DNA from: Candidatus Eiseniibacteriota bacterium
Lineage (GTDB): Bacteria > Eisenbacteria > RBG-16-71-46 > JABDJR01
Length of the DNA stretch: 64,000 bases
Reading direction: 5' to 3'
Assembly: GCA_963783375.1 (NCBI GenBank)
Contig: CAWANH010000028.1
Location: 896,001 to 960,000 of the forward strand
The translations under genes and the position numbers were made by a program. Each line of letters starts with the position of its first letter. The stretch's first letter is position 1. The notes under the pieces were generated by a model. It did no database searches and was not told where the DNA came from. It saw only the letters and a program-made list of their open reading frames with translations. Below are positions 38,829 to 57,996 of this stretch, in pieces.

Positions 38829-38855
38829 TAGCTTCCTGCGGGGGGTGAGCGACGA

Positions 38856-39458: not shown

Positions 39459-39518
39459 GGGGTGGATTCGGCCGGCCGCACGTCAAGCGGGCCGGTCTTC
39501 ATACGGAAGGGGTTCTCG

Positions 39519-40619: not shown

Positions 40620-41575
40620 TGTACAAGGGAAAGCGGGTAGCCCTGGTAATTCCGGCCTACAACGAAGCCCGGTTGATCAAGCCCACCCTGGAGGCCGTGC
40701 CACAACTCGTGGATACGGTCTACGTGGTCGACGATTGCAGTCCCGACGACCAGAACTCCGTCATCGCCGGATGCGCGGAGAAGGATCCCCGGATAAGACT
40801 GTTGAAGCACGAGGTCAACCAGGGACCGGGTGGCTCGATCATAACGGGATACCTTCAGTCGTCCCGGGACGATCACGATCTCACCGTGGTGGTCGGCGGG
40901 GACAATCAGATGCCTCTCGAGGAGATCGAGAATCTGCTCGACCCGCTTCTCGAGGGAAACGCCGACTACACCAAGGGCAACCGGTTCCTCCTGTCCACCC
41001 TGGAAGACACCCTGGGGAAGATGCCCAGGTTGAGGCTCGTGGGAAACTGGCTCATCACCGCATTGACCAAGGTGGCCTCGGGGTACTACAAGACGATGGA
41101 CGTGGTGGACGGGTACACGGCCATCACCAAGAGGGCGATTGACACGATCGACTGGTCGCGGGCGTGGAAGAAGTACGGATACCCCATGGACTTCCTCATC
41201 CGGCTCAATGCATACGGATTCAAGATCATCGACGTGCCGAGAACGGCGGTATATCTCCCCGGAGAACGCCAATCCCAGATCAAGAGTTTTGACTATGCAA
41301 TCAAGGTCTCCCCCATGCTAATCAGGAACATGGTGTGGCGCCTGAATTTCAAGTACTTCTATCGGGACTTCCATCCGCTCGTCTTCTTTTACTATCTGTC
41401 GTTCATACTGGTCCCCCTAGGCTTGATCTCCGGTCTGTACCTGGTTTTGAACAAGCTGTTCTTCGGCGGGGCCGGGGTCACGGGACCCCGATCCATCTTC
41501 GTGGCCCTCATGTTGATCTCCGGCCTTCAATTCCTGCTGTTCGCGATGCTGTTCGACATGGAAGAGGGCAAGTGA
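40619..41575 (+). CDS. GT2 glycosyltransferase (polyprenol-phosphate sugar synthase type, two C-terminal TMs)
   Basis: VIPAYNE, VVDDCS.D, N.G.G, KGNRF, GYTAI, two TMs at the C-terminus. Confidence 0.88.
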   Translation: MYKGKRVALVIPAYNEARLIKPTLEAVPQLVDTVYVVDDCSPDDQNSVIAGCAEKDPRIRLLKHEVNQGPGGSIITGYLQSSRDDHDLTVVVGGDNQMPLEEIENLLDPLLEGNADYTKGNRFLLSTLEDTLGKMPRLRLVGNWLITALTKVASGYYKTMDVVDGYTAITKRAIDTIDWSRAWKKYGYPMDFLIRLNAYGFKIIDVPRTAVYLPGERQSQIKSFDYAIKVSPMLIRNMVWRLNFKYFYRDFHPLVFFYYLSFILVPLGLISGLYLVLNKLFFGGAGVTGPRSIFVALMLISGLQFLLFAMLFDMEEGK

Positions 41576-42945
41576 CGGGGGGAAAGCCCCTGATTTCGAC
41601 CAACCGGGGTCGCCTCCTCCTGGCCCTGCTCGCCTGCCTCGCGATCAGAATCCTGTACGTCCATTTCCTGGGATGGCATTCGATTCCCCCCAACTCGGAC
41701 GCCCAAAGCTACAACGGGTACGCGTTGGCGATCCTGCAACAATCCGACTGGCTCACGCACCCCGGCTTCATGGGCGACTACCGCCCTCCCGTCTACCCCT
41801 TGTTCATCGCACTGGTCTACCGGCTCTTCGGAGAGGGGAACCTGTTCGCCGTCTTCTGCGCTCAATCCCTCATCGGTACTCTTACCGTGTACTACATCTT
41901 CAGGTTGTCGGCGGAGTTGTTCGGCGTGCGTCGCTCGGTGCTCGTTCTGATCTGGGCCGGGGTCTACTACTTTTACCTGTTCTACACGGGATTGCTCCTT
42001 CGGGAGACCCTGATCTTCTTCCTCATCGTCGTCCAGTTCTACCACCTGAAGCGGTTCTTCGACACCGGGCCCGGGCGGCGGGCCGTCTCCTCCCTCCACC
42101 TGTGGACGTTCCTGGTCGCGTTCGTTCTCCTGATACACACCGATGCCCGATATCTGTTCTACATTCCGTGTCTGGCGGCCTTGTTCGTCATATTCCGGGG
42201 TTTGAGAGCCGGGATCCGGGACTACGCGGTCATGGCCAGCCTTCTCCTGGTCCTGATGGTTCCCTGGTTGGTCAGGAACTACGTCGCCTACGGAGGAGTC
42301 GTCGTGGTGAACACCCGGACCCTCGACTTGAGGGGTTCACAAGCCAGCATGCGCCTGGAGCTGCTGAGTACGAAACCGCTGACCGAGGTGAAACAGGATC
42401 CTCACTGGCAGGCAAATCGAAACTACCCTACCGATCGAGAGAGAGCGGCGATCAAGAGCGGGGAGAATCCGAGCCACCGGAAGGCCTATGAGGTGCATAT
42501 GATCCGGAAGAACGAGTACCCCGCCTCGACCTTTCTGGGCAGGAAACTCTTCTACGCCCTCGAGATGTGGCGCCCCTTCCGGTTCGATTACAGCTACTCG
42601 CCGTTTCCCTCCGCTGCCATCGTCCCACCGTGGTCCATGAAGCACAATGTCGCCTCGATCCTCTTCTACGGCACGTTGCTGCCGTTCGCGGCCTTCGCCG
42701 TTGCCCTGCTGCTGCGCGAGGGACGGAGAGACGTTTGGTTCCTCCTCTTTCCAATCGTGGTGCAGTCGGTGATGCATTTGCTGACCTTCGGTCTCGAACG
42801 ATACCGGACCCACATCGATGCCTTCCTGCTGATCCTCGGCTGCTACGGCATCGTGGAGCTGGGGAGCCGACTCCGAAGCCGGAGGCGCTCCGCTGGCCTC
42901 CCCGGAGACGTTGCGGCCGACGGCGCCTCGGTGGGACGCTCCTGA
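41572..42945 (+). CDS. GT-C fold membrane glycosyltransferase (ArnT/PMT-like)
   Basis: First loop DA.SY...A, RPPVYP.F, LLRETL, PWLVRNY, RY near the C-terminus; many TMs. Confidence 0.8.
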   Translation: MTGGKPLISTNRGRLLLALLACLAIRILYVHFLGWHSIPPNSDAQSYNGYALAILQQSDWLTHPGFMGDYRPPVYPLFIALVYRLFGEGNLFAVFCAQSLIGTLTVYYIFRLSAELFGVRRSVLVLIWAGVYYFYLFYTGLLLRETLIFFLIVVQFYHLKRFFDTGPGRRAVSSLHLWTFLVAFVLLIHTDARYLFYIPCLAALFVIFRGLRAGIRDYAVMASLLLVLMVPWLVRNYVAYGGVVVVNTRTLDLRGSQASMRLELLSTKPLTEVKQDPHWQANRNYPTDRERAAIKSGENPSHRKAYEVHMIRKNEYPASTFLGRKLFYALEMWRPFRFDYSYSPFPSAAIVPPWSMKHNVASILFYGTLLPFAAFAVALLLREGRRDVWFLLFPIVVQSVMHLLTFGLERYRTHIDAFLLILGCYGIVELGSRLRSRRRSAGLPGDVAADGASVGRS

Positions 42946-42946
42946 C

Positions 42947-44881
42947 ATGTGCGGCATTGCGGGTGCATACCACTACGGGCGGCGAAAGCCGGTGGACTTC
43001 GCCGTGGTCAAGGGGATGTGCGAGAGCCTCATCCACCGCGGACCGGACGCGGAAGGCTATTTCCCGGCGGAGGGCGAGAACGACGGACGGGGCGCGGCCG
43101 GCGGGCGGGTCGCCCTGGGCATGCGCAGGCTGAGCATCATCGATCTGGAGACGGGGTTCCAGCCCATATTCAGCGAGGACAAGAGGTATGTGGTCTTCCA
43201 GAACGGGGAGATCTACAACTATCTCGAGTTGCGCGAGGTCCTGGAGAAGAAGGGGCATCGGTTCCATACGGAAAGCGATACGGAAGCGATCGTGCACCTG
43301 TTCGAGGAGCATGGAGAGGACGCCTTCACGTACCTGAACGGGATGTTCGCCATAGCGATATGGGATACGTCGAAAGAAATTCTATATTTGGCGAGGGATC
43401 GGTACGGTATCAAGCCCTTGTATTACACGGATCACGAAGGGGCGTTCATGTTCGCTTCGGAAATTCCCGCCCTACTCGAGGCGGGCGGGGTTTCCCGGGA
43501 GATCGACTGGACCGCCGTCGACGACTATTTCGCCCTGTACTACATAAACGCCCCCAAGACGATCTTCAAGCATATCCGCTGCCTGGAACCGGGCCACTAC
43601 ATGGTGATCGCCAAGGGGGGCGTCCGGAAATACGAATACTGGGACTTCGACTACACCGACAAGCTGAATCTGACGGAAGAGGAGTACGCGGAAGGCGTCA
43701 GAGAGCACCTCAAGGAGGCGGTGCGCAGGCAGCTTCGAAGCGATGTGCCGCTGGGGGTGTTCCTTTCGAGTGGGTTGGACTCGACCAGCGTGATGGCCTA
43801 CATGAGCCTTCTCAAAGACTCTTCGAAGGCGGGAAACGGTCCGCTCAAGAGCTACACGATCGGCTTCAAGGAGCGGACGTACGACGAACGCGGGCCTGTT
43901 CAATCGATCGTGAAGGCCTACGGATCGGATCACAGGGCGACGGAGATGGGTCCCGACTGCGTCCCTCAGTACCTGGAACAGATGATCACGAGGTTCGGAC
44001 AGCCGGTGGGGGCGTGGAATGCCGTCCCCCTGCTTCTGGTTTCCAGGCTGGCGAAGGAAGACGTCACCGTGGTGCTTACGGGGACCGGGGGCGACGAACT
44101 GTTCGGCGGGTACCCGACGCTCAGTGCCTACTCGATCAACAAGCTGTACTCGCGGTTTCCGGGGCCGGTGCGGAAAGCGGTCAAGTCCTTGTTGAACAAG
44201 ATTCCCCCCCAGTTCGAGAGGACAAGCTGGGAGTTCATGTTGAAGAGCCTCGTCAACGGCGCCGACCCGGATCCGTTCCGGGCTCATTTCAACTGGAAGC
44301 TCATATTCAATGCCGACGAGAAGGAGCGCTTGTACGGCTCGAAGTTGACGAACCTGGTAGGTGAGTACGAGGACTTCGACATATTCCGAAGGTACCTGGA
44401 CAAACTCGCGCGTTTCGAGGATCTGGAGCAGCTTCTCTATATGGACCAGAGGGTCTTCAACGCCGGCAACACGCTGCCGTTGACGGATTTGACCTCGATG
44501 ATGGTGTCTCTGGAGGCTCGGATTCCCTTCTTCGACAACGACCTCGTGGAGTTCGCGAGTCGGATCCCCATGAATCTGAAGGTGCGGGGGCTGCAGACGA
44601 AGTACATCCTGAGAAAGGCGATCATGCCCGTACTGCCCAAGGAGATCGTGGGCTTGAAGAAGATGGGGTTCGTCATTCCTGAAAACCGCTGGCTGGCCGA
44701 GGAACTGAAGGACTACGTGACGGGCTGGCTTCAACACGGGGTGATCCGAGACGGCGGGTTGTTCAACCCTGAGTACGTCGACCGGGTATTGGACGAGCAC
44801 GTTGGCTACAGGAGGGACCACGGCCGGAAGCTCCAGGCGCTGGTGTCCTTTTGCATCTGGTGGGAGCAATACGTTCGGTGA
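42947..44881 (+). CDS. asnB: Asparagine synthase-family glutamine amidotransferase (probably sugar-amidating)
   Basis: N-terminal MCGIAG, HRGPD, RRLSIID, NGEIYNY, DRYGIKPLY, LSSGLDS, G.GGDELFGGY. Confidence 0.92.
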   Translation: MCGIAGAYHYGRRKPVDFAVVKGMCESLIHRGPDAEGYFPAEGENDGRGAAGGRVALGMRRLSIIDLETGFQPIFSEDKRYVVFQNGEIYNYLELREVLEKKGHRFHTESDTEAIVHLFEEHGEDAFTYLNGMFAIAIWDTSKEILYLARDRYGIKPLYYTDHEGAFMFASEIPALLEAGGVSREIDWTAVDDYFALYYINAPKTIFKHIRCLEPGHYMVIAKGGVRKYEYWDFDYTDKLNLTEEEYAEGVREHLKEAVRRQLRSDVPLGVFLSSGLDSTSVMAYMSLLKDSSKAGNGPLKSYTIGFKERTYDERGPVQSIVKAYGSDHRATEMGPDCVPQYLEQMITRFGQPVGAWNAVPLLLVSRLAKEDVTVVLTGTGGDELFGGYPTLSAYSINKLYSRFPGPVRKAVKSLLNKIPPQFERTSWEFMLKSLVNGADPDPFRAHFNWKLIFNADEKERLYGSKLTNLVGEYEDFDIFRRYLDKLARFEDLEQLLYMDQRVFNAGNTLPLTDLTSMMVSLEARIPFFDNDLVEFASRIPMNLKVRGLQTKYILRKAIMPVLPKEIVGLKKMGFVIPENRWLAEELKDYVTGWLQHGVIRDGGLFNPEYVDRVLDEHVGYRRDHGRKLQALVSFCIWWEQYVR

Positions 44882-45300
44882 TCCCCGGGGGACCCGGACC
44901 TTCGACGGCGGGGTGGGGTCCTGCGTGGGGACCGCGGCCGGGCTGGAAGGGGACTACCCGCTCTGGTGCGGCGTCCACCCCCACGAGGCCGACTTCCCGT
45001 GGTATGCGGAGACCTACGGTTACGGCAACAACCGGTTCGTCTGCCGGGAGCGCGGGTTCACCACCGATGGGAGCGGCGCGGTGAGCCTGGGGTTCGACTA
45101 CCGGGTGGACCTCCCGAGCGCCGCCGGCTCCTAGACGATCAGGTTCCGGGTGAGCTCCTACGGCGCCCATTCCGACCAGGACGGGTTCAACCCCGCCGCC
45201 CGCAGCGCCCTGGCCCTGGACGAGGTTTCGGTCCAGGGCGGGGGTTCCCACTTCGCCGACTTCGAAGGCGGGGTCGACGGGTGGTTTCTGAGCCCGACCC
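44882..45300 (+). pseudogene. Remnant of a secreted beta-sandwich protein gene
   Basis: One frame reads LWCG...GYGNN, an in-frame TAG at 45132-45134, then IRFRVSS.GA.SDQDG...LDEVSV.GG....DFEGG..GW. No start codon or signal peptide. Confidence 0.5.
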
Positions 45301-45442: not shown

Positions 45443-46249
45443 ATGATCGACACCCACTGCCATTTCTCCCATCCGGATTTCGACCCCGACCGCGAGGCGG
45501 TGATCGAGCGCTGCCTGGCCGGCGGCGTGGCCGCGGTCCTGGAGGTGGGGTACTCCGCGGAGTCGAGCCGGAAGGCGGTGGACCTGGCGCGCCTCCACCC
45601 CCTCCGGTTCCGGGCCTCGGTGGGGATCCACCCCCACGAGGCGGGCCGCTTCACCGAGGACGAGTTCCGGGCCGTGGAGGCCATGACCGCCGAGCCCGAG
45701 GTCATCGCGATCGGTGAGACCGGGCTCGACTTCTATCGCGACTGGGCGCCCAAGGACAAACAGCTCGAGCTCTTCGCCCGCACCGTGCGCCTGGCCCGCG
45801 ATCGCGACCTTCCCCTGGTCGTTCACGATCGCGAGGCCCACGACGAGACGCTCCGGATCCTGGAAGCCGAAGGCGAGCGGAAGGTGCGGGGGATCTTCCA
45901 CTGTTTCTCCGGCGACCGCGACGTGGCCGACCGGGCCGTGGACTTGGGGTTCTACCTGGGGCTGGGGGGGAGCATCACCTACATGAACCCGCGAAAGAAG
46001 AAGGGCCGGATGATCGGAGAGCTTCCCCTGGACCGCATCCTGCTGGAGACCGACGCCCCCTGGCTCGCGCCGGTTCCGGAGAAGGGGACGCGGAACGATC
46101 CGGCCAAGATGCGCTACGTGGTGGCCCGCCTGGCCGAATCCCAGGGGGTGTCCGAGGCGGAGATCGTCCGCCGCACCAGCCGGAACGTGGCCACGCTCTT
46201 CCCTCATGCCGCCCCCTGGCCCCCGGCCGACGATGCCCCCCAGGCGTAA
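45443..46249 (+). CDS. tatD: TatD family hydrolase
   Basis: IDTHCH, GIHPH, IGETGLD, H.REA, HCFSG, LETDAP. Confidence 0.93.
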   Translation: MIDTHCHFSHPDFDPDREAVIERCLAGGVAAVLEVGYSAESSRKAVDLARLHPLRFRASVGIHPHEAGRFTEDEFRAVEAMTAEPEVIAIGETGLDFYRDWAPKDKQLELFARTVRLARDRDLPLVVHDREAHDETLRILEAEGERKVRGIFHCFSGDRDVADRAVDLGFYLGLGGSITYMNPRKKKGRMIGELPLDRILLETDAPWLAPVPEKGTRNDPAKMRYVVARLAESQGVSEAEIVRRTSRNVATLFPHAAPWPPADDAPQA

Positions 46250-47213
46250 CCGCCCCGACGTCGCCTCGGGGGGAGGCGGCCGGAGGCGCGACCGCGGCCG
46301 GTCCGGGCCGGGAGGAGCCCACGAAGACCGCCCCCGCCGTCCCCGCGCCAAGAAGCGCTTCAGCCAGAACTTCCTGGTGGACACGAACATGGCGCGGAAG
46401 ATCGTGGACCTCTGCCAGATCCGCCCCGGGGACACGGTGATCGAGATCGGGGCGGGGACCGGGGCGTTGACCGGGCTCCTCCTCGATCGGGCGGCCCGGG
46501 TCCACGCGGTGGAGGTGGACCGGGAACTTTTCGCCGGGCTTCGGGTGCAATTCGAGTCGGAGCCGCGGCTTACGCTTCACGAAGGCGACATCCTGAAGCT
46601 TCGGGTGCGCGACCTCGTCCCCGAAGGGAACGCGGTGGTGGTGGGAAACCTCCCCTACAACATCACCGCCGATCTCGTGCTCTGGCTTCTCGATCAGTAC
46701 ACGGATATCCGCCGGGCGGTGGTCCTCATGCAGCGGGAGGTGGCCCGGCGGCTCACCGCGGAACCCGGGGAGCGCGAGGCGGGAAGCATGACCCTGGTCG
46801 TGAACTACCGGGCCGAGGCCGAACGGGTTCTGGACGTACCCCCGAGTTGCTTCCGTCCCATCCCCAAGGTGACCTCGAGCCTGGTGGCGTTCCGGTTCCG
46901 CGATCGGCCCGCGGTCCGGCCCCTCGACGAACCGCGGTTCTTCCGGGTGATCCGGGCGGCGTTCGGGGAGCGGCGGAAGACCCTGGTGAACGCGCTCGCC
47001 GCCGGCCTGGGCGAGCCGCGGGAGCGGATCGAGCAGGTGGTGGCCGCGGCCGGGCTCGACCCCCGGGTGCGGGGGGAGCGCCTCACCCTGGAGGATTTCC
47101 GGCGCCTGGCCGATCACCTGGGGGAGCCGGACCCGAACGGGGACGACACCGCGGCAAAGCCCCGGGAAACGGGGTCGGAGACGGATCCATCGGCGGAGGA
47201 AGGCCAAGGGTGA
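46206..47213 (+). CDS. rsmA: 16S rRNA adenine dimethyltransferase
   Basis: KKRFSQNFL, EIGAG.G.LT, GNLPYNI, MQREVA.R, F.ERRKTL.N. Start may be 46233. Confidence 0.93.
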   Translation: MPPPGPRPTMPPRRNRPDVASGGGGRRRDRGRSGPGGAHEDRPRRPRAKKRFSQNFLVDTNMARKIVDLCQIRPGDTVIEIGAGTGALTGLLLDRAARVHAVEVDRELFAGLRVQFESEPRLTLHEGDILKLRVRDLVPEGNAVVVGNLPYNITADLVLWLLDQYTDIRRAVVLMQREVARRLTAEPGEREAGSMTLVVNYRAEAERVLDVPPSCFRPIPKVTSSLVAFRFRDRPAVRPLDEPRFFRVIRAAFGERRKTLVNALAAGLGEPRERIEQVVAAAGLDPRVRGERLTLEDFRRLADHLGEPDPNGDDTAAKPRETGSETDPSAEEGQG

Positions 47214-49225
47214 CACGGTTGGCGAGGAGCAGGCCGGGGACGTTCCGCGCGCGCGGCCCTCGGGGCGATGCCCGCTCGTCCCGGCGCTCGACGCTCGTTT
47301 GGGATCAGGGCCGTCCCCCGGGTCGCGCGCTCCCGGTCCTTGTCCCGTTCGCGCTTCTGGCCTGCCTGCTCACCGCGCCCCGGCCCGCGGCCTCCCAACC
47401 CCGCGGACAGGCCCAGGCCGACTCCAGCCGAGTGACCCAGATCATGCAGACCCTGAGCCCCAGCTACTCCACCGGCTACCAGGTCGCCCGCCAGCGGACG
47501 ATCTGGAGCCAGGACTTCAACTTCGGGACCGGCTTCGGGTTCATGAACTTCAACAACAAGACGAGCTTCTCGATCCGCCACGACAGCGACCGGAACGAGG
47601 AGACCCGGGACGGGAGCAACTCCACCGATCTCCGGTGGTACTTCATCCCGGGGCTTCCCATCACCAGCAGCATGAAGCTCGGACGGCTCTCCATCACCCG
47701 GCCCGAGAGCCAGACCGAGACCAACAACTCGGGATTGAACCTCTCGGCCCGGTACCAGAAGAATCTCCTCGGAATCGATCACGTCCTGGACGGCGGGGTA
47801 GGATACAACCGGCGGACGGATCTGAACGTCATCGCCGACGGCCGCTCCCGCACCCAGGATGCGGGCGTCAACGGGAGCATGAACTGGAAGGGCTCGTGGT
47901 CCCCGTCCGACCCGCTGACGCTGAACGCGCACTACCAGGAGTCCCGAACCCAGAAACGGCTGCAGCTCGAATCCACCGACGGCTCGGTGGACAAGCGGCC
48001 CAGTTCCAGCCGGAGTCGCACCACCGGCGCCGACCTGGGCTACGAGCCCGTCTCCTGGCTCAGCGCCACCGTTTCCGCCAACGACGTCACCAAGCGCGAC
48101 GAGTTCTTCCGGGCCCAGGAGGAGGCGCTGGAGAAGCAGGTGAGCGGGAGCACCAATCTCTCCGGGCAGTTCAGCATGAAGCGGCCGGGCAAGGCCCTCT
48201 TGGAACTGGGTCCCCTCCAGGTCTCCGAGATGAGCGCGGACCTCTCCTACAACGCCCACGACCTGACCTTTCAGGTACGCCCCGACGTTGCCTCCTCGGG
48301 GAATACCGCTTCCTGGAAGGGGCGCACGAAGGGAAGCATGCTCGGAACGTCGATCGAGGGGAGCCTGGCCAACGAAAACTCCCGTCTGGAGCCCGCGACC
48401 AGCGATACGACCGTGACCTATACCCACACCTTCGAAGGGAAGCTGAGTCGAAGCCTCTCCTCGAAGATCAGCGTGCGGTTCGACTGGCTGGTCCGGTCCA
48501 CCCAGGTCTTCTTCGAGACCTTCGACCCCAAGGATCGCCTGGACCGGGACGAGCTCAAGACCAAGTTCCAGCCCGCCCTCACCTACACCCCGAACAAGAG
48601 GTGGTCGGTGACCGCCTCCTATATCCGGACCGGCTCCCGGCAGATCCAGCTCAACCCCGCCCGGGCCAGCCAGACCCGGGACGACGTGGACTACAGCGTG
48701 GACATGGCGATCCGCTGCCAGGTGAGCACCCGGACCTCTTTCACCCAGAACTACTCGATCAAGGCCCGCTACACCACCCTGGACTTCAACCCCTCCGGGA
48801 ACCAGCTCATCGCCACCCAGCGCATCATCACCAGCGTGCGCTCGCAGATCACCCCCCGGGTGAAGCTCTCCATGGACCACCGCTTCACCCTTCAGGATTC
48901 GGGCCCGTTCAGTTTCGGCCCGGGGGGAGAGCGGCTCTTCGGGCGCTCGGTCCGGAAGTACACCCAGGAGATGAAGCCCCACGTCGAGTATCAGATCACT
49001 CCCTGGGGATCGATCTACGTCAACTCGACTTTCCGCCGGATCGACAACGACAACGAGCTGAGCCGGAGCCGGGCCACCGCCCGGACCCTGGAGCTGGAGG
49101 AGGGGTTCAAGGTGACGCGGGAGGTGGGGGCCGGGGTAGACTTGCAGGCCACCGGGAGTTTCAACCGGAGCAACGTCCGGGACTCCTACTGGAACATCAC
49201 CTCGAAGCTGAGCAAGGACTTCTAG
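47210..49225 (+). CDS. Predicted outer-membrane beta-barrel protein, family unknown
   Basis: Signal peptide ending PAAS-Q; alternating amphipathic S/T-rich strands throughout; C-terminal YWNITSKLSKDF ending in Phe. Start uncertain. Confidence 0.72.
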   Translation: MTRLARSRPGTFRARGPRGDARSSRRSTLVWDQGRPPGRALPVLVPFALLACLLTAPRPAASQPRGQAQADSSRVTQIMQTLSPSYSTGYQVARQRTIWSQDFNFGTGFGFMNFNNKTSFSIRHDSDRNEETRDGSNSTDLRWYFIPGLPITSSMKLGRLSITRPESQTETNNSGLNLSARYQKNLLGIDHVLDGGVGYNRRTDLNVIADGRSRTQDAGVNGSMNWKGSWSPSDPLTLNAHYQESRTQKRLQLESTDGSVDKRPSSSRSRTTGADLGYEPVSWLSATVSANDVTKRDEFFRAQEEALEKQVSGSTNLSGQFSMKRPGKALLELGPLQVSEMSADLSYNAHDLTFQVRPDVASSGNTASWKGRTKGSMLGTSIEGSLANENSRLEPATSDTTVTYTHTFEGKLSRSLSSKISVRFDWLVRSTQVFFETFDPKDRLDRDELKTKFQPALTYTPNKRWSVTASYIRTGSRQIQLNPARASQTRDDVDYSVDMAIRCQVSTRTSFTQNYSIKARYTTLDFNPSGNQLIATQRIITSVRSQITPRVKLSMDHRFTLQDSGPFSFGPGGERLFGRSVRKYTQEMKPHVEYQITPWGSIYVNSTFRRIDNDNELSRSRATARTLELEEGFKVTREVGAGVDLQATGSFNRSNVRDSYWNITSKLSKDF

Positions 49226-49227
49226 TT

Positions 49228-49869
49228 ATGGAGACAAAGCGGGGACGGGGAACCCGGGGGGCGGCCCGGGGTTCAATCTGGGGAGCCGGGGTTCTGCTCC
49301 TGGCCGGGCTCGTCGGGTGCGGGTTCTTCTCGATCCGGGACCCGATCCGGCCCCCGGGAACGGGAGTGGGCTGTCCCCAACACGCGGCCAGCTCGCCGGA
49401 TAGCGTGCTCTTCAACTTCGGGGCCGCCATGGGGTGCAAGGGGGACGGGACCAGCTTCTACGAGCAGGCGCTGGGGCCGGACTTCGTTCTGGTCCTGGAT
49501 CAGCTGGACGTCATATCGCTCCAGCTCCCGGATTCCCTGAATCGGAACCAGGATCTCCAGGCCCACGAGATCATCGTGTCCGCGGAGCCGGACTCGTTCC
49601 ATTTCGCCTTCGCGGCGGTGACCGCTCAGCGGGGCACCGACGGCCAGGGGAACTCGTACGCGTTTTTCGAGAACATGCCCTACAGTCTGCAATTCATTGG
49701 AACATCCGGGGATACGACAGTCGTGAACCAGACCTACTCCGGAAGAGTGGACCTCACCGTGACGGAGGAAACCGCGGCCAACTGGGTATTCAGCCGATGG
49801 AAGGACTATCGGGACGACTCCGGCAACCCCACCCTGGGGTCCCTGCACGCCGGCAGAGCCCCCCTGTAG
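49228..49869 (+). CDS. Hypothetical lipoprotein (NTF2-like, distant relative of the downstream array)
   Basis: Lipobox LVGC; SSPDSVLFNF..A......Y...L..DF; W....W.D near the C-terminus. Confidence 0.75.
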   Translation: METKRGRGTRGAARGSIWGAGVLLLAGLVGCGFFSIRDPIRPPGTGVGCPQHAASSPDSVLFNFGAAMGCKGDGTSFYEQALGPDFVLVLDQLDVISLQLPDSLNRNQDLQAHEIIVSAEPDSFHFAFAAVTAQRGTDGQGNSYAFFENMPYSLQFIGTSGDTTVVNQTYSGRVDLTVTEETAANWVFSRWKDYRDDSGNPTLGSLHAGRAPL

Positions 49870-49967
49870 AAGTGCTAAACTGATTTGGCTGGGGTGGCCC
49901 GTCTGAGGTTTCGGGATTTCCGGCCGATAATCAACGAGGCTGGAAGTCCCCTCTGGAGGTTCGATCT

Positions 49968-50654
49968 ATGAAGCGCGCATTGAGGTTCTTGGTCATCGCC
50001 GCGGTGGCCGGGATATTCATCAAGGGATGCATCTTTTCCCCGACGACGAAGCCCCCGGTGGAGATCAAGGCCTACAAGGCCGCCACCACCCCCGAGAACG
50101 TGGCGTTCAACCTTCAGAACGCCTACGCGAGGAAGGACATCGAGGCCTACGGGAAGCTCATGGCCCCGGAGTTTCGTTTCTACTTCCAGGAGGCGGACGT
50201 GCCCGCGGAGCTGGGCCGGGACTACTGGGTCCACGACGAGGACTCCACCCATACCGACATTCTCTTCCGCACCCCCGAGGTGAACAGCATCAGCATCACC
50301 CTGACCTACGGGGCGGCCACCGTGCCGACCGAGCTGGACAAACCCGCCGGGTCCATGAAGATCCACGTGACCGCCCACCTCGATGTGGACGACGTGAACG
50401 GCACCACCTACGTGGTGGACGGCGACTTCGAGGACATGTATTTCCGGAAGGGGCTGATGGAGAACGCGGACGAGGACACCACCCTCTGGTACCTCTTCGA
50501 ATGGCACGACATCAAGAATCCCGGCGGGACCGGCGCCGCCCCCACCGGCGGGCTGAGTCCGGCCGGCGCGGTCTCGGACGTGTCCGGCGGAGTGCAGACG
50601 GTGTCCTGGGGCGAGCTCTTGAAGGAAACCGGAGTAGAGCCCCCGACACCTTGA
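49968..50654 (+). CDS. Tandem lipoprotein paralog 1
   Basis: GGAGG RBS; lipobox IKGC; core PENVA.NL..AY..D...Y..L.APEFRFYFQ...WYLFEWHDI; tail SWGELLK. Confidence 0.85.
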   Translation: MKRALRFLVIAAVAGIFIKGCIFSPTTKPPVEIKAYKAATTPENVAFNLQNAYARKDIEAYGKLMAPEFRFYFQEADVPAELGRDYWVHDEDSTHTDILFRTPEVNSISITLTYGAATVPTELDKPAGSMKIHVTAHLDVDDVNGTTYVVDGDFEDMYFRKGLMENADEDTTLWYLFEWHDIKNPGGTGAAPTGGLSPAGAVSDVSGGVQTVSWGELLKETGVEPPTP

Positions 50655-50860
50655 TACATGGCGGCCACGTACCCCCGGTCGCCTGACGGCCGTTTCCCCC
50701 GGCCCTGACAGAGTCCGTCCCGGCGGCGCAATGCGTCGCGCGGGTCCGGTGTGGCCGTGTCATTCCCGCGGCTGCCCGGGACGTTTCCGCTCGCCCATCC
50801 GAGGCTCCGGCGCCCCCACCGCCGCCCCGGGCGAGGCCGGGCGTCGATGGAGGAGTCGCC

Positions 50861-51529
50861 ATGAAGCTGCTCGCCCGATCCGGATTCGGGGCGTTGATCG
50901 TGTCCGTCGTCCTGGGGTTCGTGGGGTCCGGCTGTGCCGACAAGGTCACGGATTCGGGCCGGAGCCCCGACTATCGGCCCCGGACGTCCCCCGAGAACGT
51001 CGCCAGCAACCTGGCCGAGGCCTATCGGGCCCGGGACGCCGAGGCCTACGCCAGGCTCCTGGCCCCCGAGTTCCGCTTCTACTTCCAGAGTCGGGACGTG
51101 CCCCCGGACCTGGGACGGGATTACTGGATCCGCGACGAGGACCTGAGCCATACCGGGAGCCTCTTCGCGGCCGGCGAGGTGAGGGGGATCGACGTCGACC
51201 TGCTCTACGGGCCGGCCACCGATCCCACCGAGCTGGACAAGGCCAGCGGGACCAAGAAGATCCACGTGACCGCCCGGGTCCAGGTGCGGGACCGGTACGG
51301 CGTCGATTACCAGGTGAACGGGGACTTCCAGGATCTCTTCTTCCGGAAGGGGCTCCCGGCCGGCGCCGGCGAGGACACGACCCTCTGGTACCTCTTCGAG
51401 TGGCGCGACATCCGGAACCCCGGCGGGACCGGGTTCGCGCCCGGGGGCGGGATGGATTTGGCGGGGGCGCCGGGGCCGACCCCGGTCGAGCGGATCACCT
51501 GGGGGAAGATCAAGCAGCTGTTCCCGTGA
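50861..51529 (+). CDS. Tandem lipoprotein paralog 2
   Basis: AGGAG RBS; GSGC lipobox; same core; tail TWGKIKQLFP. Confidence 0.85.
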   Translation: MKLLARSGFGALIVSVVLGFVGSGCADKVTDSGRSPDYRPRTSPENVASNLAEAYRARDAEAYARLLAPEFRFYFQSRDVPPDLGRDYWIRDEDLSHTGSLFAAGEVRGIDVDLLYGPATDPTELDKASGTKKIHVTARVQVRDRYGVDYQVNGDFQDLFFRKGLPAGAGEDTTLWYLFEWRDIRNPGGTGFAPGGGMDLAGAPGPTPVERITWGKIKQLFP

Positions 51530-51579
51530 GCCCGCCCACGGCGGCGCGGGACCGGACGGGCCAGAGAGGGGGAACGATC

Positions 51580-52245
51580 ATGAAGCCGCGTGTTCGAACC
51601 GCGTCGCGGGTTCTCTTCGCCGCCGTTCTGCTCGGGGCGGTCGGAGGCGGGTGTAAGGACAAGTCCACCAACGTCATCGTGGAGCCCTTGATTCCGCCGT
51701 ACAAACCCGCCACCAGCCCGGAGAACGTGACCTACGATCTTCAGATCTGCTACCAGCACCGGGACATCGAGGTCTACGGAAAGCTTCTGGCTCCCGAGTT
51801 CCGGTTCTACTTCCAGGCCGCGGACGTGCCCGCGGAGCTGGGCCGGGACTACTGGCTCCACGACGAGGACTCGACCCACACCGACATCCTCTTCCGCACC
51901 CCGCAGGTGAACAACATCAGCATCACCCTGACCTACGGGGCGGCCACCCCGCCGACCGAGCCGGACAAGCCCGCCGGATCCATGAAGATCCACGTGACCG
52001 CCCACCTGGAGGTGGGCGACGTGAGCGGCATCACCTACATCGTGGACGGCGACTTCGAGGATCTCTACTTCCGCAAAGGGCTTCTCCAGAGCGCGGGCGA
52101 GGACACCACGAAGTGGTACCTCTTCGAGTGGCACGACATCCGGAACCACGGTTCCTACGGCGCTTCATCCGGCGGCCCGGCCGGCGTGGAGTTCGCGGCG
52201 GTCCGGGGGACGACCTGGGGAAGGCTCAAGACCCGGTACAACTGA
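51580..52245 (+). CDS. Tandem lipoprotein paralog 3
   Basis: Start MKPRVRTAS; GGGC lipobox; same core; tail TWGRLKTRYN. Confidence 0.85.
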   Translation: MKPRVRTASRVLFAAVLLGAVGGGCKDKSTNVIVEPLIPPYKPATSPENVTYDLQICYQHRDIEVYGKLLAPEFRFYFQAADVPAELGRDYWLHDEDSTHTDILFRTPQVNNISITLTYGAATPPTEPDKPAGSMKIHVTAHLEVGDVSGITYIVDGDFEDLYFRKGLLQSAGEDTTKWYLFEWHDIRNHGSYGASSGGPAGVEFAAVRGTTWGRLKTRYN

Positions 52246-52268
52246 GCCCCGTGGAGGGAGTTCGGGCA

Positions 52269-52916
52269 ATGAAAACATGGATGCGAAACGGACTCGGGTT
52301 CCTGGCCGCGGCCGCCCTGATCACGACCGCGGGCCTGGGCTGCAAGGACAAGACCACGGAGCCGGCGCCGGACACGACCCAGGTCTCCCCCGAAATGGTG
52401 GCGGAGAGTCTCCAGATGGCGTACCGGGACCGGGACATCGATCTCTACGACAAGCTCCTGGCCCCCGAGTTCCGGTTCTACTTCCAGGACGCCGACGTGT
52501 CCCAGGACCTGGGCCGGGTCTACTGGATCCACGACCAGGACTCCACCGCCACCGGCATCCTCTTCCGCACCCCCCAGGTGAATGGGATCTACGTGACCCT
52601 GACCTACGGAGAAGCCACCGCCGCCACCGAAGTGGGCATGCCCCCCGGAGCGATGAAGGTCCACGCCACCGCCCATCTCGATGTGGACGACGTGAACGGC
52701 ACCACCTACGTGGTGGACGGGGACTACGAGGACTTCTACTTCCGCAAGGGGCTCCTCCAGAACGCGGGCGAGGACACCACGAAGTGGTATCTGTTCGAGT
52801 GGCACGACATCAATCATGCCCGGGGCAACGGCGCCGGACCCGGCGGCCTCTCCGGGGTGGAGTCCACGGCGACCGAGAGGACGACCTGGGGCTCCATCAA
52901 GCTGATGTATCGGTGA
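52269..52916 (+). CDS. Tandem lipoprotein paralog 4
   Basis: Start MKTWMRNG; GLGC lipobox; same core; tail TWGSIKLMYR. Confidence 0.85.
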   Translation: MKTWMRNGLGFLAAAALITTAGLGCKDKTTEPAPDTTQVSPEMVAESLQMAYRDRDIDLYDKLLAPEFRFYFQDADVSQDLGRVYWIHDQDSTATGILFRTPQVNGIYVTLTYGEATAATEVGMPPGAMKVHATAHLDVDDVNGTTYVVDGDYEDFYFRKGLLQNAGEDTTKWYLFEWHDINHARGNGAGPGGLSGVESTATERTTWGSIKLMYR

Positions 52917-53104: not shown

Positions 53105-54331
53105 TTGAACCCGCTCTCACCCGGGAGGCGCGCCATCTCTCGTCGTCATCGCCGCCGCCGCCGCTCCCCGCTGCGGGTGATCTTCCTCCTGGTCCTGGTG
53201 GCCGCGGCGGCGTACTTCGGCGGCCGCTACCTGCTCTCCCCGCCCGGCCGCTACCTGGTGGCCACCCGGCTCTGGAACGGGAAGCCCTCCCGCATGAAGC
53301 CGGTCCTGGAGGAGGCCATGGCCCGGGCGGCGCGGCGCCTCGATCTTCCCCCCCCCATGCCCCAGCTCATCTGCAAGCCGGACACCACCGGATCGAGCAT
53401 CTGCCGCTCCACCATCGCTCTTCCCCCGGGGGTGAGCACCATCCAGGCCAACGCCGAGCTCACCCGGGCGCTCACCGGGCTGGGGACCCAGTTCGTCTCC
53501 GGCGCCCAGAGCCCCGACGGCACGGTGGAGATCAGCTTCCGGGCCGGGAAGCGGGTGACCCTGGCCCTCACCCTCCTCCCTCCGGTGGGGACCGGCCTCG
53601 ACACCATGATGGCCCCCGCCCCCAACCTCCCCCAGGTCGAGGTCCGGGCGCGGCTGGCCCTCATCATCGACGACTACGGGGAGGACGCCGGGGCCTCGGC
53701 CCGGTTCCAGGGGCTTCCCGGGACCTTCACCGCCGCCGTCCGCTCCAACCTGGACGACCCCGGGCGGATCGCCGACCAGGCCCGCAAAGCCGGTTTCGAG
53801 GTGATCCTGAACCTCCCCATGGAGCCCGAGAACTACCCCACCCGGACCCCCGGCTCCGACGCCATCCTGGTCGATCTCTCCGGCCGCGAGATCCGAAAAC
53901 GGGTGGACGACGCCCTGGACCGGGTGGGTCCGGTGCCCGGGGTGAAGTCCTACATGGGCGCCCTGGCGGTGGAGGATCGCGACGTCGTCCGGCCGGTCCT
54001 GGAGGAGATCAAGAAGCGCGGGCTCTTCTTCGTGGACGCGGCCATGTCCAACTACTCCACCGTTCCCGAGCTGGCCCACGAGATCGGGGTTCCCAGCCTC
54101 TCCATCACCTCCCAGTCCGAGGTGGACCTGGGGCGGCACGACGCCGGCACCATCGGGATCCGGTTCGAGGACCTGGTCAACACCTGCCGCCGCCGGGGCT
54201 ACGCGGTGGGCATCATCCACGCCCGGGAGGGCACCCTGAGCGTGCTGCGGGACCGGCTCCCGGGCCTGGCCCGGGAGGGGATCGTGGTCATGGGGCTTTC
54301 CGAGGTGATGAAAGCCCACGAGCTGGAGTAA
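53105..54331 (+). CDS. Divergent polysaccharide deacetylase (YibQ-like) family protein
   Basis: N-terminal TM; ALIIDD.G, LPMEP..YP...PG, YMG, FFVD, A.GI.H. Confidence 0.85.
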   Translation: MNPLSPGRRAISRRHRRRRRSPLRVIFLLVLVAAAAYFGGRYLLSPPGRYLVATRLWNGKPSRMKPVLEEAMARAARRLDLPPPMPQLICKPDTTGSSICRSTIALPPGVSTIQANAELTRALTGLGTQFVSGAQSPDGTVEISFRAGKRVTLALTLLPPVGTGLDTMMAPAPNLPQVEVRARLALIIDDYGEDAGASARFQGLPGTFTAAVRSNLDDPGRIADQARKAGFEVILNLPMEPENYPTRTPGSDAILVDLSGREIRKRVDDALDRVGPVPGVKSYMGALAVEDRDVVRPVLEEIKKRGLFFVDAAMSNYSTVPELAHEIGVPSLSITSQSEVDLGRHDAGTIGIRFEDLVNTCRRRGYAVGIIHAREGTLSVLRDRLPGLAREGIVVMGLSEVMKAHELE

Positions 54332-54435
54332 CGGGGGGCCTCCCACCGGCAACCCGCCCCGGGGGCGCGATTTAGCCTCGTCGATCTAAGTGATTGCGCG
54401 CCAAGGAGCCGCGAGGGCAAGGCACCGGCTTTTCG

Positions 54436-54464
54436 TTGACAGACCCGGGGGGGTGGCGTAGCAT
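54436..54464 (+). promoter_or_regulatory. Sigma70-type promoter of secDF
   Basis: TTGACA-17 nt-TAGCAT. Confidence 0.65.
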
Positions 54465-54512
54465 GTGGCGCCTTGTGTTCCATCCCCTGATTGCTCCCAC
54501 GGAGTGTTCTTG

Positions 54513-56153
54513 ATGAGTAACCTGCGCTGGAAATGGGCCCTCCTGGTCATCGTGCTCGCGGTGTTCGGGTGGTACCTGGTCCCCACGATCCGCTACTACT
54601 CCATGCCCCCGGACGTTCAATCCTCGAACGTCCCCCGGGTGGAAAAGATCCGTGAAGGGGCCATGAAGCTCGGCCTCGACCTTCAGGGCGGTTCCTACCT
54701 GGTCTACGAAGTGGACCTGGCCAAGATCCCCAAGGAGCAGCGCCGGGGGGACGAGGTGGACCGGGCCATCGAGATCATCCGGAACCGCATCGACCAGTTC
54801 GGGGTGAGCGAGCCGGTCATCCAGAAGCAGGGCCAGGACCGGATCGTGGTTCAGCTCCCGGGCCTGACCGACCCGGAGCGGGCGAAAGAGCTGGTCGGGA
54901 AGACCGCCCGGCTGGAGTTCCGGCTGGTCAAGACCAAGCAGGAGTTCTACCAGGCCCTGGCCGCCATGGACGTGGCGGTGGCCCGGCGGGAGAAGCTGGG
55001 CGACTTCGCCGACACCGCTTCCGTGGCCGCCGGCGACAGCGCGGCCGCGGCGGACACCACCGCCGCCTCCACCAACCCCTTCACCCGGCTCCTCACCCAG
55101 GCCCAGAACGCCGACGCCGGGTACGCCTACGTCCCCGCCGAGAACTACGACAAGGCCCACGCCATGTGGGAGGCGGTGGCCTACGACTCCACCAAGGAGG
55201 AGCCCCGGGTCCTGGCCGGGAACACCGTGCTTCTCTGGGGGGACCGGCAGTTCGGTTCGGGGACCGAGAACCCCGGCCGGTATCTCTACGCCCTGAGCGG
55301 CCGGCCGGATCTCACCGGGGATCAGGTGGCCGACGCCAAGGTGGCCTTCGGTCTGGAGCCGGCCCGGCCCAACGCCCCCGGGGTGAGCCTCACCCTGGAC
55401 AAGCGCGGCGCGGGCATCTTCACCCGGCTCACCGGGAACAACGTGGGACGCCAGCTGGCCATCGTTCTCGACAACACCGTGAAATCGGCCCCGGTCATCC
55501 AGGACAAGATCCGGGGCGGCCGCGCCTCGATCACCGGTCTCCAGGGGGACAACGAGGCCAAGGACCTGGGGATCGTGCTCCGGGCGGGGGCCCTGCCCAC
55601 CGACCTCATCCTCCAGGAGGAGCGGACGGTGGGTCCGTCCCTCGGGAAGGACAGCATCCGGGAGGGGCTTCAGGCCTCGCTGTTCGGGCTGATCCTGGTG
55701 GTGGGGTTCACCGCGATCTACTACCGGCTTTCCGGGATCGTCGCGGTGATGGCGCTCCTCATCAACCTCTTCTTCATCGTCGCCACCCTGAGCATGCTCC
55801 GAGGGACGTTGACCCTGCCCGGCATAGCCGGCGTGGTGCTCACCATCGGTATGGCGGTGGACGCCAACGTGCTCATCCTGGAACGTGTGCGCGAGGAGCT
55901 TCGAAACGGCAAGACGGTCCGGGGGGCGATCGAGGCGGGCTACGGCCGGGCCTTCATCACCATCCTGGACTCGAACCTGACCACCCTGATCTCCTCGGTG
56001 GTGCTGTTCCAGTTCGGCACCGGTCCCATCAAGGGTTTTGCCATCACCCTGATGATCGGGATCATCGCCAACGTCTTCACCGCGGTCTTCGTGACGCGGC
56101 TGGTCTACGACTCCTTCATGGCCAAGCGGCCGATCAAGAAGCTGAGTATCTAG
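54513..56153 (+). CDS. secD: Protein translocase subunit SecD
   Basis: LGLDLQGG, RNRIDQFGVSEP, LAIVLD, LRAGALP, VGPSLG, GMAVDANVLI.ER, DSNLTT. Confidence 0.96.
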   Translation: MSNLRWKWALLVIVLAVFGWYLVPTIRYYSMPPDVQSSNVPRVEKIREGAMKLGLDLQGGSYLVYEVDLAKIPKEQRRGDEVDRAIEIIRNRIDQFGVSEPVIQKQGQDRIVVQLPGLTDPERAKELVGKTARLEFRLVKTKQEFYQALAAMDVAVARREKLGDFADTASVAAGDSAAAADTTAASTNPFTRLLTQAQNADAGYAYVPAENYDKAHAMWEAVAYDSTKEEPRVLAGNTVLLWGDRQFGSGTENPGRYLYALSGRPDLTGDQVADAKVAFGLEPARPNAPGVSLTLDKRGAGIFTRLTGNNVGRQLAIVLDNTVKSAPVIQDKIRGGRASITGLQGDNEAKDLGIVLRAGALPTDLILQEERTVGPSLGKDSIREGLQASLFGLILVVGFTAIYYRLSGIVAVMALLINLFFIVATLSMLRGTLTLPGIAGVVLTIGMAVDANVLILERVREELRNGKTVRGAIEAGYGRAFITILDSNLTTLISSVVLFQFGTGPIKGFAITLMIGIIANVFTAVFVTRLVYDSFMAKRPIKKLSI

Positions 56154-56162
56154 GGAGCGTCC

Positions 56163-57110
56163 ATGTTTGAGATCTTCGTCGGCGCCAAGTTCAATTTCAT
56201 GGGACACCGGCGCTTCGCGTACTTCATCTCCGGGTCCCTGATCCTGATCAGCATCCTCTCCCTGGTCCTCCACGGGGGCCCGCGGGAGTCGATCGACTTC
56301 ACCGGGGGCACCGTCCTCTACCTCGGGTTCAATCCCAAGGTGGCGGTGGGGGACATCCGCTCCGCGGCCCAGAAAGCCGGGCTGGGCGGGGTGCAGGTCC
56401 AGATGGCCGAGGACGGGAGCCAGGCCATCCTTCACTTCGGCAAGAACGAGACCTCGGGGGACGCCTTCCAGAACTTCCAGGGCCAGCTCGATCTGACCCA
56501 TCCCGAGGTGACCCTGACCCTCCTGAGCCAGGAGACGGTCGGGCCCAAGGTGGGGAGCGAGCTGGAAGAGAAGGCCACCCTGGCCATCCTCTGGAGCCTC
56601 GTCCTCATCCTCATCTACATCGCCTGGCGGTTCACCCGCTTCAGCTTCGGTTTTGGCGCGGTGCTGGCACTCTTCCACGACATCCTCATCACCCTGGGCC
56701 TCTTTTCCGTCCTGAACCGGGAGATCAGCCTCACCGTGGTGGCGGCCTTCCTCACCATCGGCGGGTACTCGATCAACGACACCATCGTGGTGTTCGATCG
56801 GATCCGGGAGAACATGGGGCTCATCCGCCGGATGAGCTTCGCCGAGGTCATCAACAAGAGCGTGAACCAGACCCTGAGCCGCACCGTGCTGACCGCGGGA
56901 ACCACGCTCCTGGCCGTTCTGGCCCTCTTCTTCCTGGGCGGGCCGGTCATCCACGAGTTTGCCCTGGCCATGCTGGTCGGGGTGGTGATCGGAACCTACT
57001 CGTCCATCTTCGTGGCCAGCTCCCTGGCCCTGGACATCTCCAGCTGGTGGACCCGGCGGAAGCAGACCAAGACCGCCGGAACCTCGGCCAAGGCGGTGGC
57101 CACCCGCTAG
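56163..57110 (+). CDS. secF: Protein translocase subunit SecF
   Basis: IDFTGG, VGP.VG.EL, L.HD, GYSINDTIVVFDRIREN, QTLSRT, GTYSSIF. Confidence 0.96.
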   Translation: MFEIFVGAKFNFMGHRRFAYFISGSLILISILSLVLHGGPRESIDFTGGTVLYLGFNPKVAVGDIRSAAQKAGLGGVQVQMAEDGSQAILHFGKNETSGDAFQNFQGQLDLTHPEVTLTLLSQETVGPKVGSELEEKATLAILWSLVLILIYIAWRFTRFSFGFGAVLALFHDILITLGLFSVLNREISLTVVAAFLTIGGYSINDTIVVFDRIRENMGLIRRMSFAEVINKSVNQTLSRTVLTAGTTLLAVLALFFLGGPVIHEFALAMLVGVVIGTYSSIFVASSLALDISSWWTRRKQTKTAGTSAKAVATR

Positions 57111-57309
57111 TTGCCCGGGTCCGGCCCCGCCCGCTCCGGGGGCCGGTGGGGTCCCTCCCCCCCGGAATTCGGCCGTCGCCTCCGCTTCGGGTGGAATCCC
57201 GACCCGCCCGATCCGTTATACTAAGAGGTTACAATCAGCTTTCGAGGCCGCCCCCTCACGGCTTCCCGGGAACTCCTTCCCGCTTTCGAGCGTCCAATGG
57301 GTTGAGCCT

Positions 57310-57996
57310 ATGAAGCTTAGAATACTGATTCCCACCCTGGTCCTTGCCTCCTCCCTGGCCGTCGCCGCGGCCTGGGTCCCGCCGGCCCACGCCCTGGACC
57401 AGGGATTCCGCATCGCCCGGCTCAAGTACGGGGGCGGAGGGGACTGGTACTCCAACCCCACGTCGCTCCCCAATCTCATGAAGGCGCTGCGGAGCCGCAC
57501 CGCGATCGAGGTGGCCGGCGACCAGGAGGCGCGGGTGGAGCTTCTGGACGAGAACCTCTTCTCGTATCCGTTGATCTACATGAACGGCCACGGGGAGGTC
57601 CGGTTCAGCCAGGCCGAGGTCGATCGCCTGCACCAGTACCTGGACCGGGGAGGCTTCCTGTGGGCGGACGACAACTACGGGATGGACCGCTCGTTCCGGC
57701 GCGAGATCGCCAAGGTGTTCCCCGGACACGATCTGGTGGAGATCCCTTTCAATCACAATGTGTTCCACGACTTCTACGATCTGCCCCAGGGAACCCCGAA
57801 GGTCCACGAGCACGACGGGTTGCCCGCCCAGTCCCTTGGGCTCTTCGACAAGGGGAGGCTCGTCGTCCTCTACACTTACCAGTCGGACATCGGGGACGGC
57901 ATGGAGGATCCGGAGGTTCACAACGACCCGGCCCCCATCCGTGAGAAGGCCATGGAGTTCGCGGTCAATCTCGTGGTCTACGTCATGACCCACTAG
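57310..57996 (+). CDS. DUF4159 domain periplasmic protein
   Basis: Signal peptide; IARLKY.GGGDWY, YP..YM.GHG, GGFL.ADDNYG, PKVHEHDG. Confidence 0.88.
   Translation: MKLRILIPTLVLASSLAVAAAWVPPAHALDQGFRIARLKYGGGGDWYSNPTSLPNLMKALRSRTAIEVAGDQEARVELLDENLFSYPLIYMNGHGEVRFSQAEVDRLHQYLDRGGFLWADDNYGMDRSFRREIAKVFPGHDLVEIPFNHNVFHDFYDLPQGTPKVHEHDGLPAQSLGLFDKGRLVVLYTYQSDIGDGMEDPEVHNDPAPIREKAMEFAVNLVVYVMTH

Follow-up and report, generated by a model that had tools for sequence, protein, structure and literature searches.

The 64,000-nucleotide stretch analyzed here (hereafter the window), which spans positions 896,001 to 960,000 of contig CAWANH010000028.1 from a Candidatus Eiseniibacteriota bacterium, contains six consecutive open reading frames (ORFs), all on the plus strand, that encode an outer-membrane β-barrel followed by five lipoproteins. 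The barrel ORF (47210..49225) starts at a GTG, specifies 671 residues with a C-terminal Phe, and overlaps by 4 nt the stop of an upstream housekeeping gene (46206..47213) that, following an earlier label, we take to be rsmA. Two nucleotides past the barrel stop is the start of LipoA (49228..49869), a fixed partner lipoprotein and LipoB homolog that has a TWG-like motif built in directly after its core, degenerate in this copy (TLGSLH, 49831..49848). Next is LipoB (49968..50654), a fixed NTF2-like lipoprotein and the predicted receptor of the TWG tails described below; its own tail, SWGELLK (50604..50624), is also degenerate and, as in the rest of the window's family, has no lysine where contact with Asp92 is predicted. 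Three extra LipoB duplicates complete the array (50861..51529, 51580..52245 and 52269..52916), and these end in canonical TWGx[IL]K tails: TWGKIK (51497-51514), TWGRLK (from 52213) and TWGSIK (from 52884), respectively. Each of the five lipoproteins has a hydrophobic signal and a Gly-Cys lipobox, and no promoter or terminator signal rises above shuffled sequences inside the barrel-LipoA-LipoB unit. The original prediction had drawn this same layout, with a barrel of ~670 residues overlapping the upstream stop, a lipoprotein 2 nt on and four more on the same strand, and it is borne out; the C-terminal tail, and the conservation of only the first two lipoproteins, are features beyond it.

The conserved unit consists of three genes, those for the barrel, LipoA and LipoB, and not of six. 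A barrel profile built from 113 sequences matches 143 of 151 Eisenbacteria genomes, 115 of 118 high-quality genomes and all 72 genera, mostly once per genome (the 151-genome tallies for barrel, tail, SprA and lipoproteins include the unpublished genome G015, on which alone no claim depends). Among the 137 barrel loci inspected, 123 from genomes and 14 from metagenome contigs, LipoA lies next to the barrel in 122 of the 125 with room for it, and LipoB comes next in 114 of 116. The exceptions are two partial barrel matches (L093, L159), a LipoA just beyond the distance limit (L097) and a duplicated LipoA that shifts LipoB (L094). The same order is found in metagenome contigs whose barrels are 24-29% identical to any sampled barrel of the phylum; there the unit sits behind the same upstream gene, a frequent barrel neighbor that is taken as context only, and in two long distant contigs it lies ahead of genes that are presumably secD and secF. 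Since well over 100 further loci show this order, the gene order of the window is not a product of chance. The neighborhood check that accompanied the original prediction thus came out in its favor, with barrel and lipoproteins co-located in relatives and variable in copy number.

An apparent co-loss of the barrel and the type IX component SprA in genus g14 was rejected, and no real loss is shown, because the upstream gene labeled rsmA falls at a contig end in four of the five genomes and was not found in the fifth. This check covered the five genomes of g14 in which the barrel match is weak or absent; five other barrel-negative genomes (81-88% complete) lie outside it. Look-alikes in the ESM Atlas, which are leads only, point to Krumholzibacteriota for LipoB (0.97) and to Acidobacteriota and Cloacimonadota clusters for the barrel (0.96). 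At one locus (L004:11862-12582), LipoA is split over three frames, reflecting either an assembly error or a broken gene.

Tandem extras occur at only nine of the 62 loci with at least 5 kb of downstream sequence, one of the nine being the shifted LipoB of L094, and are absent from the other 53; the nine include each of the four qualifying loci in the family to which the window belongs. The three extras of the window are 53-66% identical to LipoB, and in a tree of 29 domains extras join the LipoB of their own genome, with starred clades for L003, L004, L049 and the window, while one long-branch L002 domain is unplaced. Because extras are absent from most loci and group with their own LipoB, the five-lipoprotein array is a lineage-specific LipoB expansion, and the extras are most likely not core subunits but clients, or variants that fill their own pockets. 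The earlier picture of five interchangeable partners is not supported, LipoA and LipoB being fixed. Its description of the five lipoproteins as related stands insofar as all of them are homologous, but LipoA is only 25% identical to LipoB and holds a distinct, fixed position.

Lipoprotein-profile matches number 1-9 per genome, further paralogs lying elsewhere in the genomes. One of these, in the genome of the window, is a distant, tail-less lipoprotein of 26-35% identity (G000:C3:195412-196281, minus strand, locus L148) near a presumably ssb-like gene. Others are two-domain tandem NTF2 proteins (P0068, P0069, P0070, P0072, P0073 and L002:13331-14593) with an internal TWG motif, sometimes degenerate, between the domains; P0068 resembles a fusion of a LipoB-type with a LipoA-type domain. 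A LipoB duplicate at L003:13320-13772 is shortened internally and keeps a perfect tail.

The AlphaFold model of the barrel (predicted local distance difference test, pLDDT, 95.8; predicted template-modeling score, pTM, 0.83) displays a single nine-residue N-terminal helix and then 28 long strands ending in Phe, with no plug or POTRA domain; the strand count is that of the DSSP list minus two three-residue strands. Closure as a single barrel is suggested by the unbroken strand pattern and by a 502-residue alignment to MtrB, itself a single barrel, and standard geometry with an assumed shear of 32-36 gives a backbone diameter of 52-55 Å. Conserved residues concentrate in strands 17-24 and at both ends. 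Pfam and NCBIfam scans of the six window proteins returned nothing over cut-off, and scans and model agree with the earlier claim that the barrel has no TonB plug or POTRA and no recognizable family. Among barrel homologs, 6 of 63 have a Pfam match (generic barrel families or an appended domain), and 2 of 20 distant ones have a weak NCBIfam match. The best hit of the barrel in a profile search of PDB sequences has an E-value of 0.36, and Foldseek and VIA retrieve generic large barrels only, although the absence of a close match does not prove a new fold.

The best structural neighbor, MtrB/PioB (6R2Q chain B), is likewise a large barrel without a plug, its lumen being occupied by a partner protein, and aligns over 502 residues with a VIA Z of 19.3, a root-mean-square deviation (rmsd) of 10.1 Å, 8% identity and a TM-score of 0.42; part of SprA aligns with a Z of 16.3 and an rmsd of 9.8 Å. 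MtrB has 26 strands. The barrel has no MtrB/PioB profile match, and the five downstream proteins contain no CxxCH motif, the mark of the multiheme cytochrome that accompanies MtrB/PioB. In a survey of 571,760 predicted barrels, strand counts of 8-26 were kept and 28 was dropped as a rare label, so that a single-chain 28-strand barrel falls outside the counts retained there (bioRxiv 10.64898/2026.03.07.710327). A distant group of 780-840-residue barrels (P0171, P0175, P0182, P0190, P0199, P0212 and P0232) has a long low-complexity N-terminal stretch and shares the DRD, QxY and QDxG motifs.

LipoB is predicted to adopt the NTF2-like fold (model pLDDT 85), with three helices on a curved mixed sheet that forms a cone, as the original prediction had supposed from shared core residues that prove to be invariant alignment columns. 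Foldseek supports the assignment at an E-value of 1e-6 (target TM 0.78), and VIA at a Z of 13.8 with an rmsd of 2.3 Å over 122 aligned residues. Members of the NTF2-like/SnoaL superfamily such as 3ROB, 3B8L and the CaMKII hub have the same fold, but LipoB is 7-17% identical to them, is a lipoprotein, and is predicted to hold a peptide tail in the mouth of its pocket. Profile searches of PDB sequences gave best E-values of 0.8 for LipoA and 0.022 for LipoB, the latter for the signal peptide only. LipoA and LipoB are homologous by HHalign (99.3%, E = 3e-20), which also aligns the built-in motif of LipoA with the LipoB tail. A disordered linker precedes the tail in the LipoB model, where the tail itself is folded into a strand (209-211) and a helix (214-221). 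That a number of structural alignments of LipoB reach residues 216-225 suggests packing of the tail against the domain.

The tail is also widespread outside the locus. It ends 56 of the 37,892 six-frame ORFs of this genome and none in a reversed control, is 10-16 residues in length, and is preceded by a signal-like start (simple hydrophobicity rule) in 47 of the 56. These 47 signal-bearing ORFs have a median length of 230 residues (43 of 47 are no longer than 320) and fall into 27 sequence families; a Pfam domain is present in 2 of the 19 tailed proteins scanned. A DNA pattern for the tail finds matches in 148 of 151 genomes, with up to 95 matches, while controls give 0-2 per genome. In LipoA, a tail-like motif stands right after the last strand at 84 of 128 loci (strict TWG at 43 of 128), the canonical TWGx[LIVA][KR] occurs in 38 of 115 triads, and the motif is perfect in the distant metagenome contigs. 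Locus-bound LipoB proteins are mostly tail-less, 37 of 118 having a tail. Canonical tails on both LipoA and LipoB coincide in only 2 of 115 triads (Fisher p = 4e-4, which is not counted as proof because kin are not independent). No description of the barrel, the lipoproteins or the tail was found in searches of the open-access literature.

Residue patterns point to the manner in which such a tail could be bound. LipoA Glu79 is paired with Arg or Lys at position 177 in 101 of 113 sequences, and the matching position of LipoB, 92, is Asp or Glu in 76 of 76 tail-less LipoBs. From this acid-base pairing and the acidic LipoB residue, the tail lysine was expected to fall on Asp92, an expectation stated before the outcome of the complex prediction was known. 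LipoB residues 30-186, with the protein's own tail removed, were modeled together with a peptide made up of the 34 C-terminal residues of another tailed protein, unrelated to LipoB, from the same genome (L130). The complex scored 0.89, and the best of three controls 0.02; among benchmark cases, 116 of 157 solved complexes attain this mark, as do 2 of 215 mismatched pairs, figures that are only rough for the alignments used. At least 96% of contacts are shared between runs, the partner has a pLDDT of at least 64, and only tail-peptide residues 19-34 touch LipoB. In the predicted interface, Thr24-Thr25 pair with LipoB 148-150, Trp26 meets Val150, Asp181 and Leu138, Gly27 meets Phe73 and Asp77, and Lys30 meets Asp92, His95, Thr96 and Leu99. 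The closest-contact residues are conserved at 0.52 in tail-less LipoBs, compared with 0.36 at other core positions, and the predicted pocket is near-identical in the four LipoB-type proteins of the window. LipoB is thus predicted, on the strength of these models, to recognize the TWG tail.

Covariation analysis, an underpowered method here, offers hints at most. Within LipoA, tail-core covariation has a top z of 6.4, above 20 permutations, in a calculation that ignores phylogeny. Between chains (~113 sequences), LipoA-LipoB and barrel-LipoA signals are not clearly above shuffles in an analysis whose positive control failed, only 4 of the top 40 barrel pairs lying on adjacent strands; for barrel-LipoB, one or two pairs exceed the shuffles (z of 9.2 and 8.0, against at most 7.8).

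The reading that we favor, with somewhat more belief than doubt, is that the unit is a dedicated outer-membrane exporter for TWG-tailed proteins. Its cargo would be the small proteins that display both a signal-like N terminus and a C-terminal TWGxIK tail. The tail is predicted to add a strand to the edge of the LipoB NTF2 sheet and to place its helix in the mouth of the pocket, with its Lys on Asp92, and in this way to complete the LipoB fold in trans, much as the built-in tail of LipoA would in cis. LipoA and LipoB may seal the pore of the plugless barrel from a position inside or beneath it, in which case a built-in or weakened tail could act as a placeholder that is displaced by cargo. Conceivably, folded cargo of ~15-35 kDa would then pass through a pore of ~52-55 Å backbone diameter. 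That LptD, SprA and PorV-like genes exist separately in this genome counts in favor of a dedicated exporter.

Several observations weigh against this proposal. SprA is present in 140 of 151 genomes, nearly as widespread as the barrel, and offers a rival pore; the link between tail and barrel therefore cannot rest on co-occurrence inside the phylum. We infer the connection of the barrel to the lipoproteins from gene order alone, and transport itself and the destination of the cargo are conjectural. The complex score may reflect the in-cis geometry of tail-bearing homologs known to the model, and its controls were unrelated peptides, not mutated tails. LipoB has its own canonical tail in 29 of 115 triads and would there fill its own pocket. 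Genome G091 (92% complete; loci L166, L098, L103) has the barrel, LipoA and LipoB with no strict tails, a relaxed pattern giving two matches against three in the control, and the unit persists in family f5, whose genomes have only 0-5 tails each. In a comparison of 17 families, into which 102 of 151 genomes entered, paralog number does not scale with tails per Mb (rho 0.10). Finally, two tailed proteins, of 854 and 880 residues, are unusually long. These two genes (G000:C28:1096922-1099546 and C29:1344187-1346853) each lie beside shorter related tailed genes.

It could instead be that the NTF2 lipoproteins constitute a docking scaffold, with anchors that, by a cohesin-dockerin logic, hold tailed proteins in the periplasm or at the surface, and with tailed paralogs that could chain by tail exchange, while the barrel serves the lipoproteins or is simply plugged by them. 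This alternative, the most probable of the rivals but still unlikely, would involve the same predicted fit of tail and pocket, and paralogs do have both pocket and tail, an internal tail being kept in the tandem forms P0068, P0070, P0072, P0073 and L002:13331-14593. A parallel exists in chaperone-usher and type V pili, in which one protein lends a short peptide to finish the incomplete fold of the next; type V pilins are lipoprotein precursors joined via C-terminal donor strands (PMC8512630). The present case differs from donor-strand systems in its predicted NTF2 fold and strand-plus-helix peptide. A scaffold would have to serve 56 different clients with just one or two tail-less anchors, its extras are missing at most loci of the phylum, and the wide plugless barrel fixed alongside would need a separate reason.

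An accessory branch of type IX secretion, in which LipoB captures TWG cargo and passes it to SprA, with the barrel acting as a shuttle or attachment component specific to the lineage, appears improbable. The inventory of this genome is suggestive, with SprA (a separate 2048-residue frame; SprA_N, PF14349, matches only C29:766884-768215), four PorV-like genes and 103 FlgD-Ig matches alongside the TWG-tailed set; a search for GldN matched nowhere, its controls being silent as well. Type IX and the TWG unit are alike in having a C-terminal address on Sec-exported cargo and a large barrel with separate partners, and occur in the same genomes. The barrel even has a PorP/SprF (TIGR03519) match at an E-value of 1.3e-4, but this amounts to 21.5 bits against a cut-off of 90.55 and covers residues 101-209 only (109 of ~290 positions). 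Type IX genes were not recognized in the loci whose ORFs were listed. Moreover, the TWG tag is a short strand-plus-helix peptide of 10-16 residues, its predicted receptor is an NTF2 lipoprotein, and no homology exceeds cut-offs, whereas type IX cargo carry an Ig-like C-terminal domain (PMC11285876).

More doubtful still is a housekeeping envelope pore for lipid, glycan or large-solute traffic that is plugged by the LipoA-LipoB pair, the tail being a structural helix of the lipoproteins that other proteins have borrowed for an unrelated purpose. The unit is indeed kept like a core gene where tails are few (f5 and G091), sits among housekeeping genes near secD-secF, and shows no real loss in the five genomes checked. 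Such a pore would leave unexplained, however, both the predicted tail-binding acid of tail-less LipoBs and the same end peptide on 27 unrelated families. LptD-LptE is a conserved single-copy large barrel plugged by a lipoprotein, and the barrel unit is similar in being a conserved single-copy large barrel with a lipoprotein. Yet LptD is encoded separately in this genome (PF19838 matches only C29:1233441, E = 2e-60), and the barrel model has 28 strands and lacks a jellyroll domain, while LptD-like barrels have 26 strands and ushers 24, according to the same survey (bioRxiv 10.64898/2026.03.07.710327).

An uptake or ligand-capture barrel with five interchangeable lipoproteins, the version put forward originally, is very improbable: copy number does vary and NTF2 pockets often bind small molecules, but the pocket residues of the four LipoB-type proteins show no varied specificity, the positions of LipoA and LipoB are fixed, and the barrel model is without a TonB plug. 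The SusC/D analogy is disfavored along with it, as the predicted occupant of the NTF2 pocket is a peptide tail and not a small ligand. Slam/type XI and SusC/D resemble the unit in linking a barrel gene to lipoproteins; Slam is a 14-strand barrel with TPRs, and SusC a 22-strand plugged barrel with the TPR-type SusD. The barrel has no plug in its model, no Pfam or NCBIfam match to a plug or TonB-dependent transporter, and 28 strands, not 22; in place of a SusD-type helical TPR partner there is NTF2-like LipoB with its homolog LipoA. N-terminal TPRs and a 14-strand barrel are absent from the barrel model and profile scans, as are, for Omp85 proteins (BamA/TamA/TpsB), POTRA domains, and the strand number is not 16. 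Of the features that define the TonB/SusC, LptD, SprA, PorP, MtrB, Omp85 and Slam groups, those that could be tested are absent.

Elsewhere in the window, a block at 53105-57996 is kept downstream in close relatives and contains a sigma-70-like site at 54436-54464; its ORFs are presumably a polysaccharide-deacetylase-like gene, secD, secF and one further ORF. At 38001-45000, GC content drops to 57-62% from ~69%, and this segment, with a membrane protein at 41335-42945 and an ORF at 42911-44881 that we take to be asparagine-synthase-like, is probably a surface-glycan locus.

The barrel, LipoA and LipoB form an envelope unit that is real, phylum-wide and unclassified, and that includes the predicted receptor of an orphan C-terminal tag. 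The stronger proposition, to which we give a little less than even credence, is a new numbered class of secretion system in Eisenbacteria and relatives, in which two NTF2 lipoproteins would recognize a 10-16-residue C-terminal TWGxIK tag through fold completion, and folded proteins no larger than ~35 kDa would leave through a 28-strand translocon, in parallel to type IX and with no known motor. The unit supplies a candidate receptor and a candidate pore for an orphan tag borne by tens of proteins per genome across an uncultured phylum, and a single peptide together with a single 17-kDa domain suffices to test the tag directly. If export is confirmed, a ~15-residue tag that directs folded proteins across the outer membrane by means of three genes would be a secretion route not seen before, and useful for engineering.

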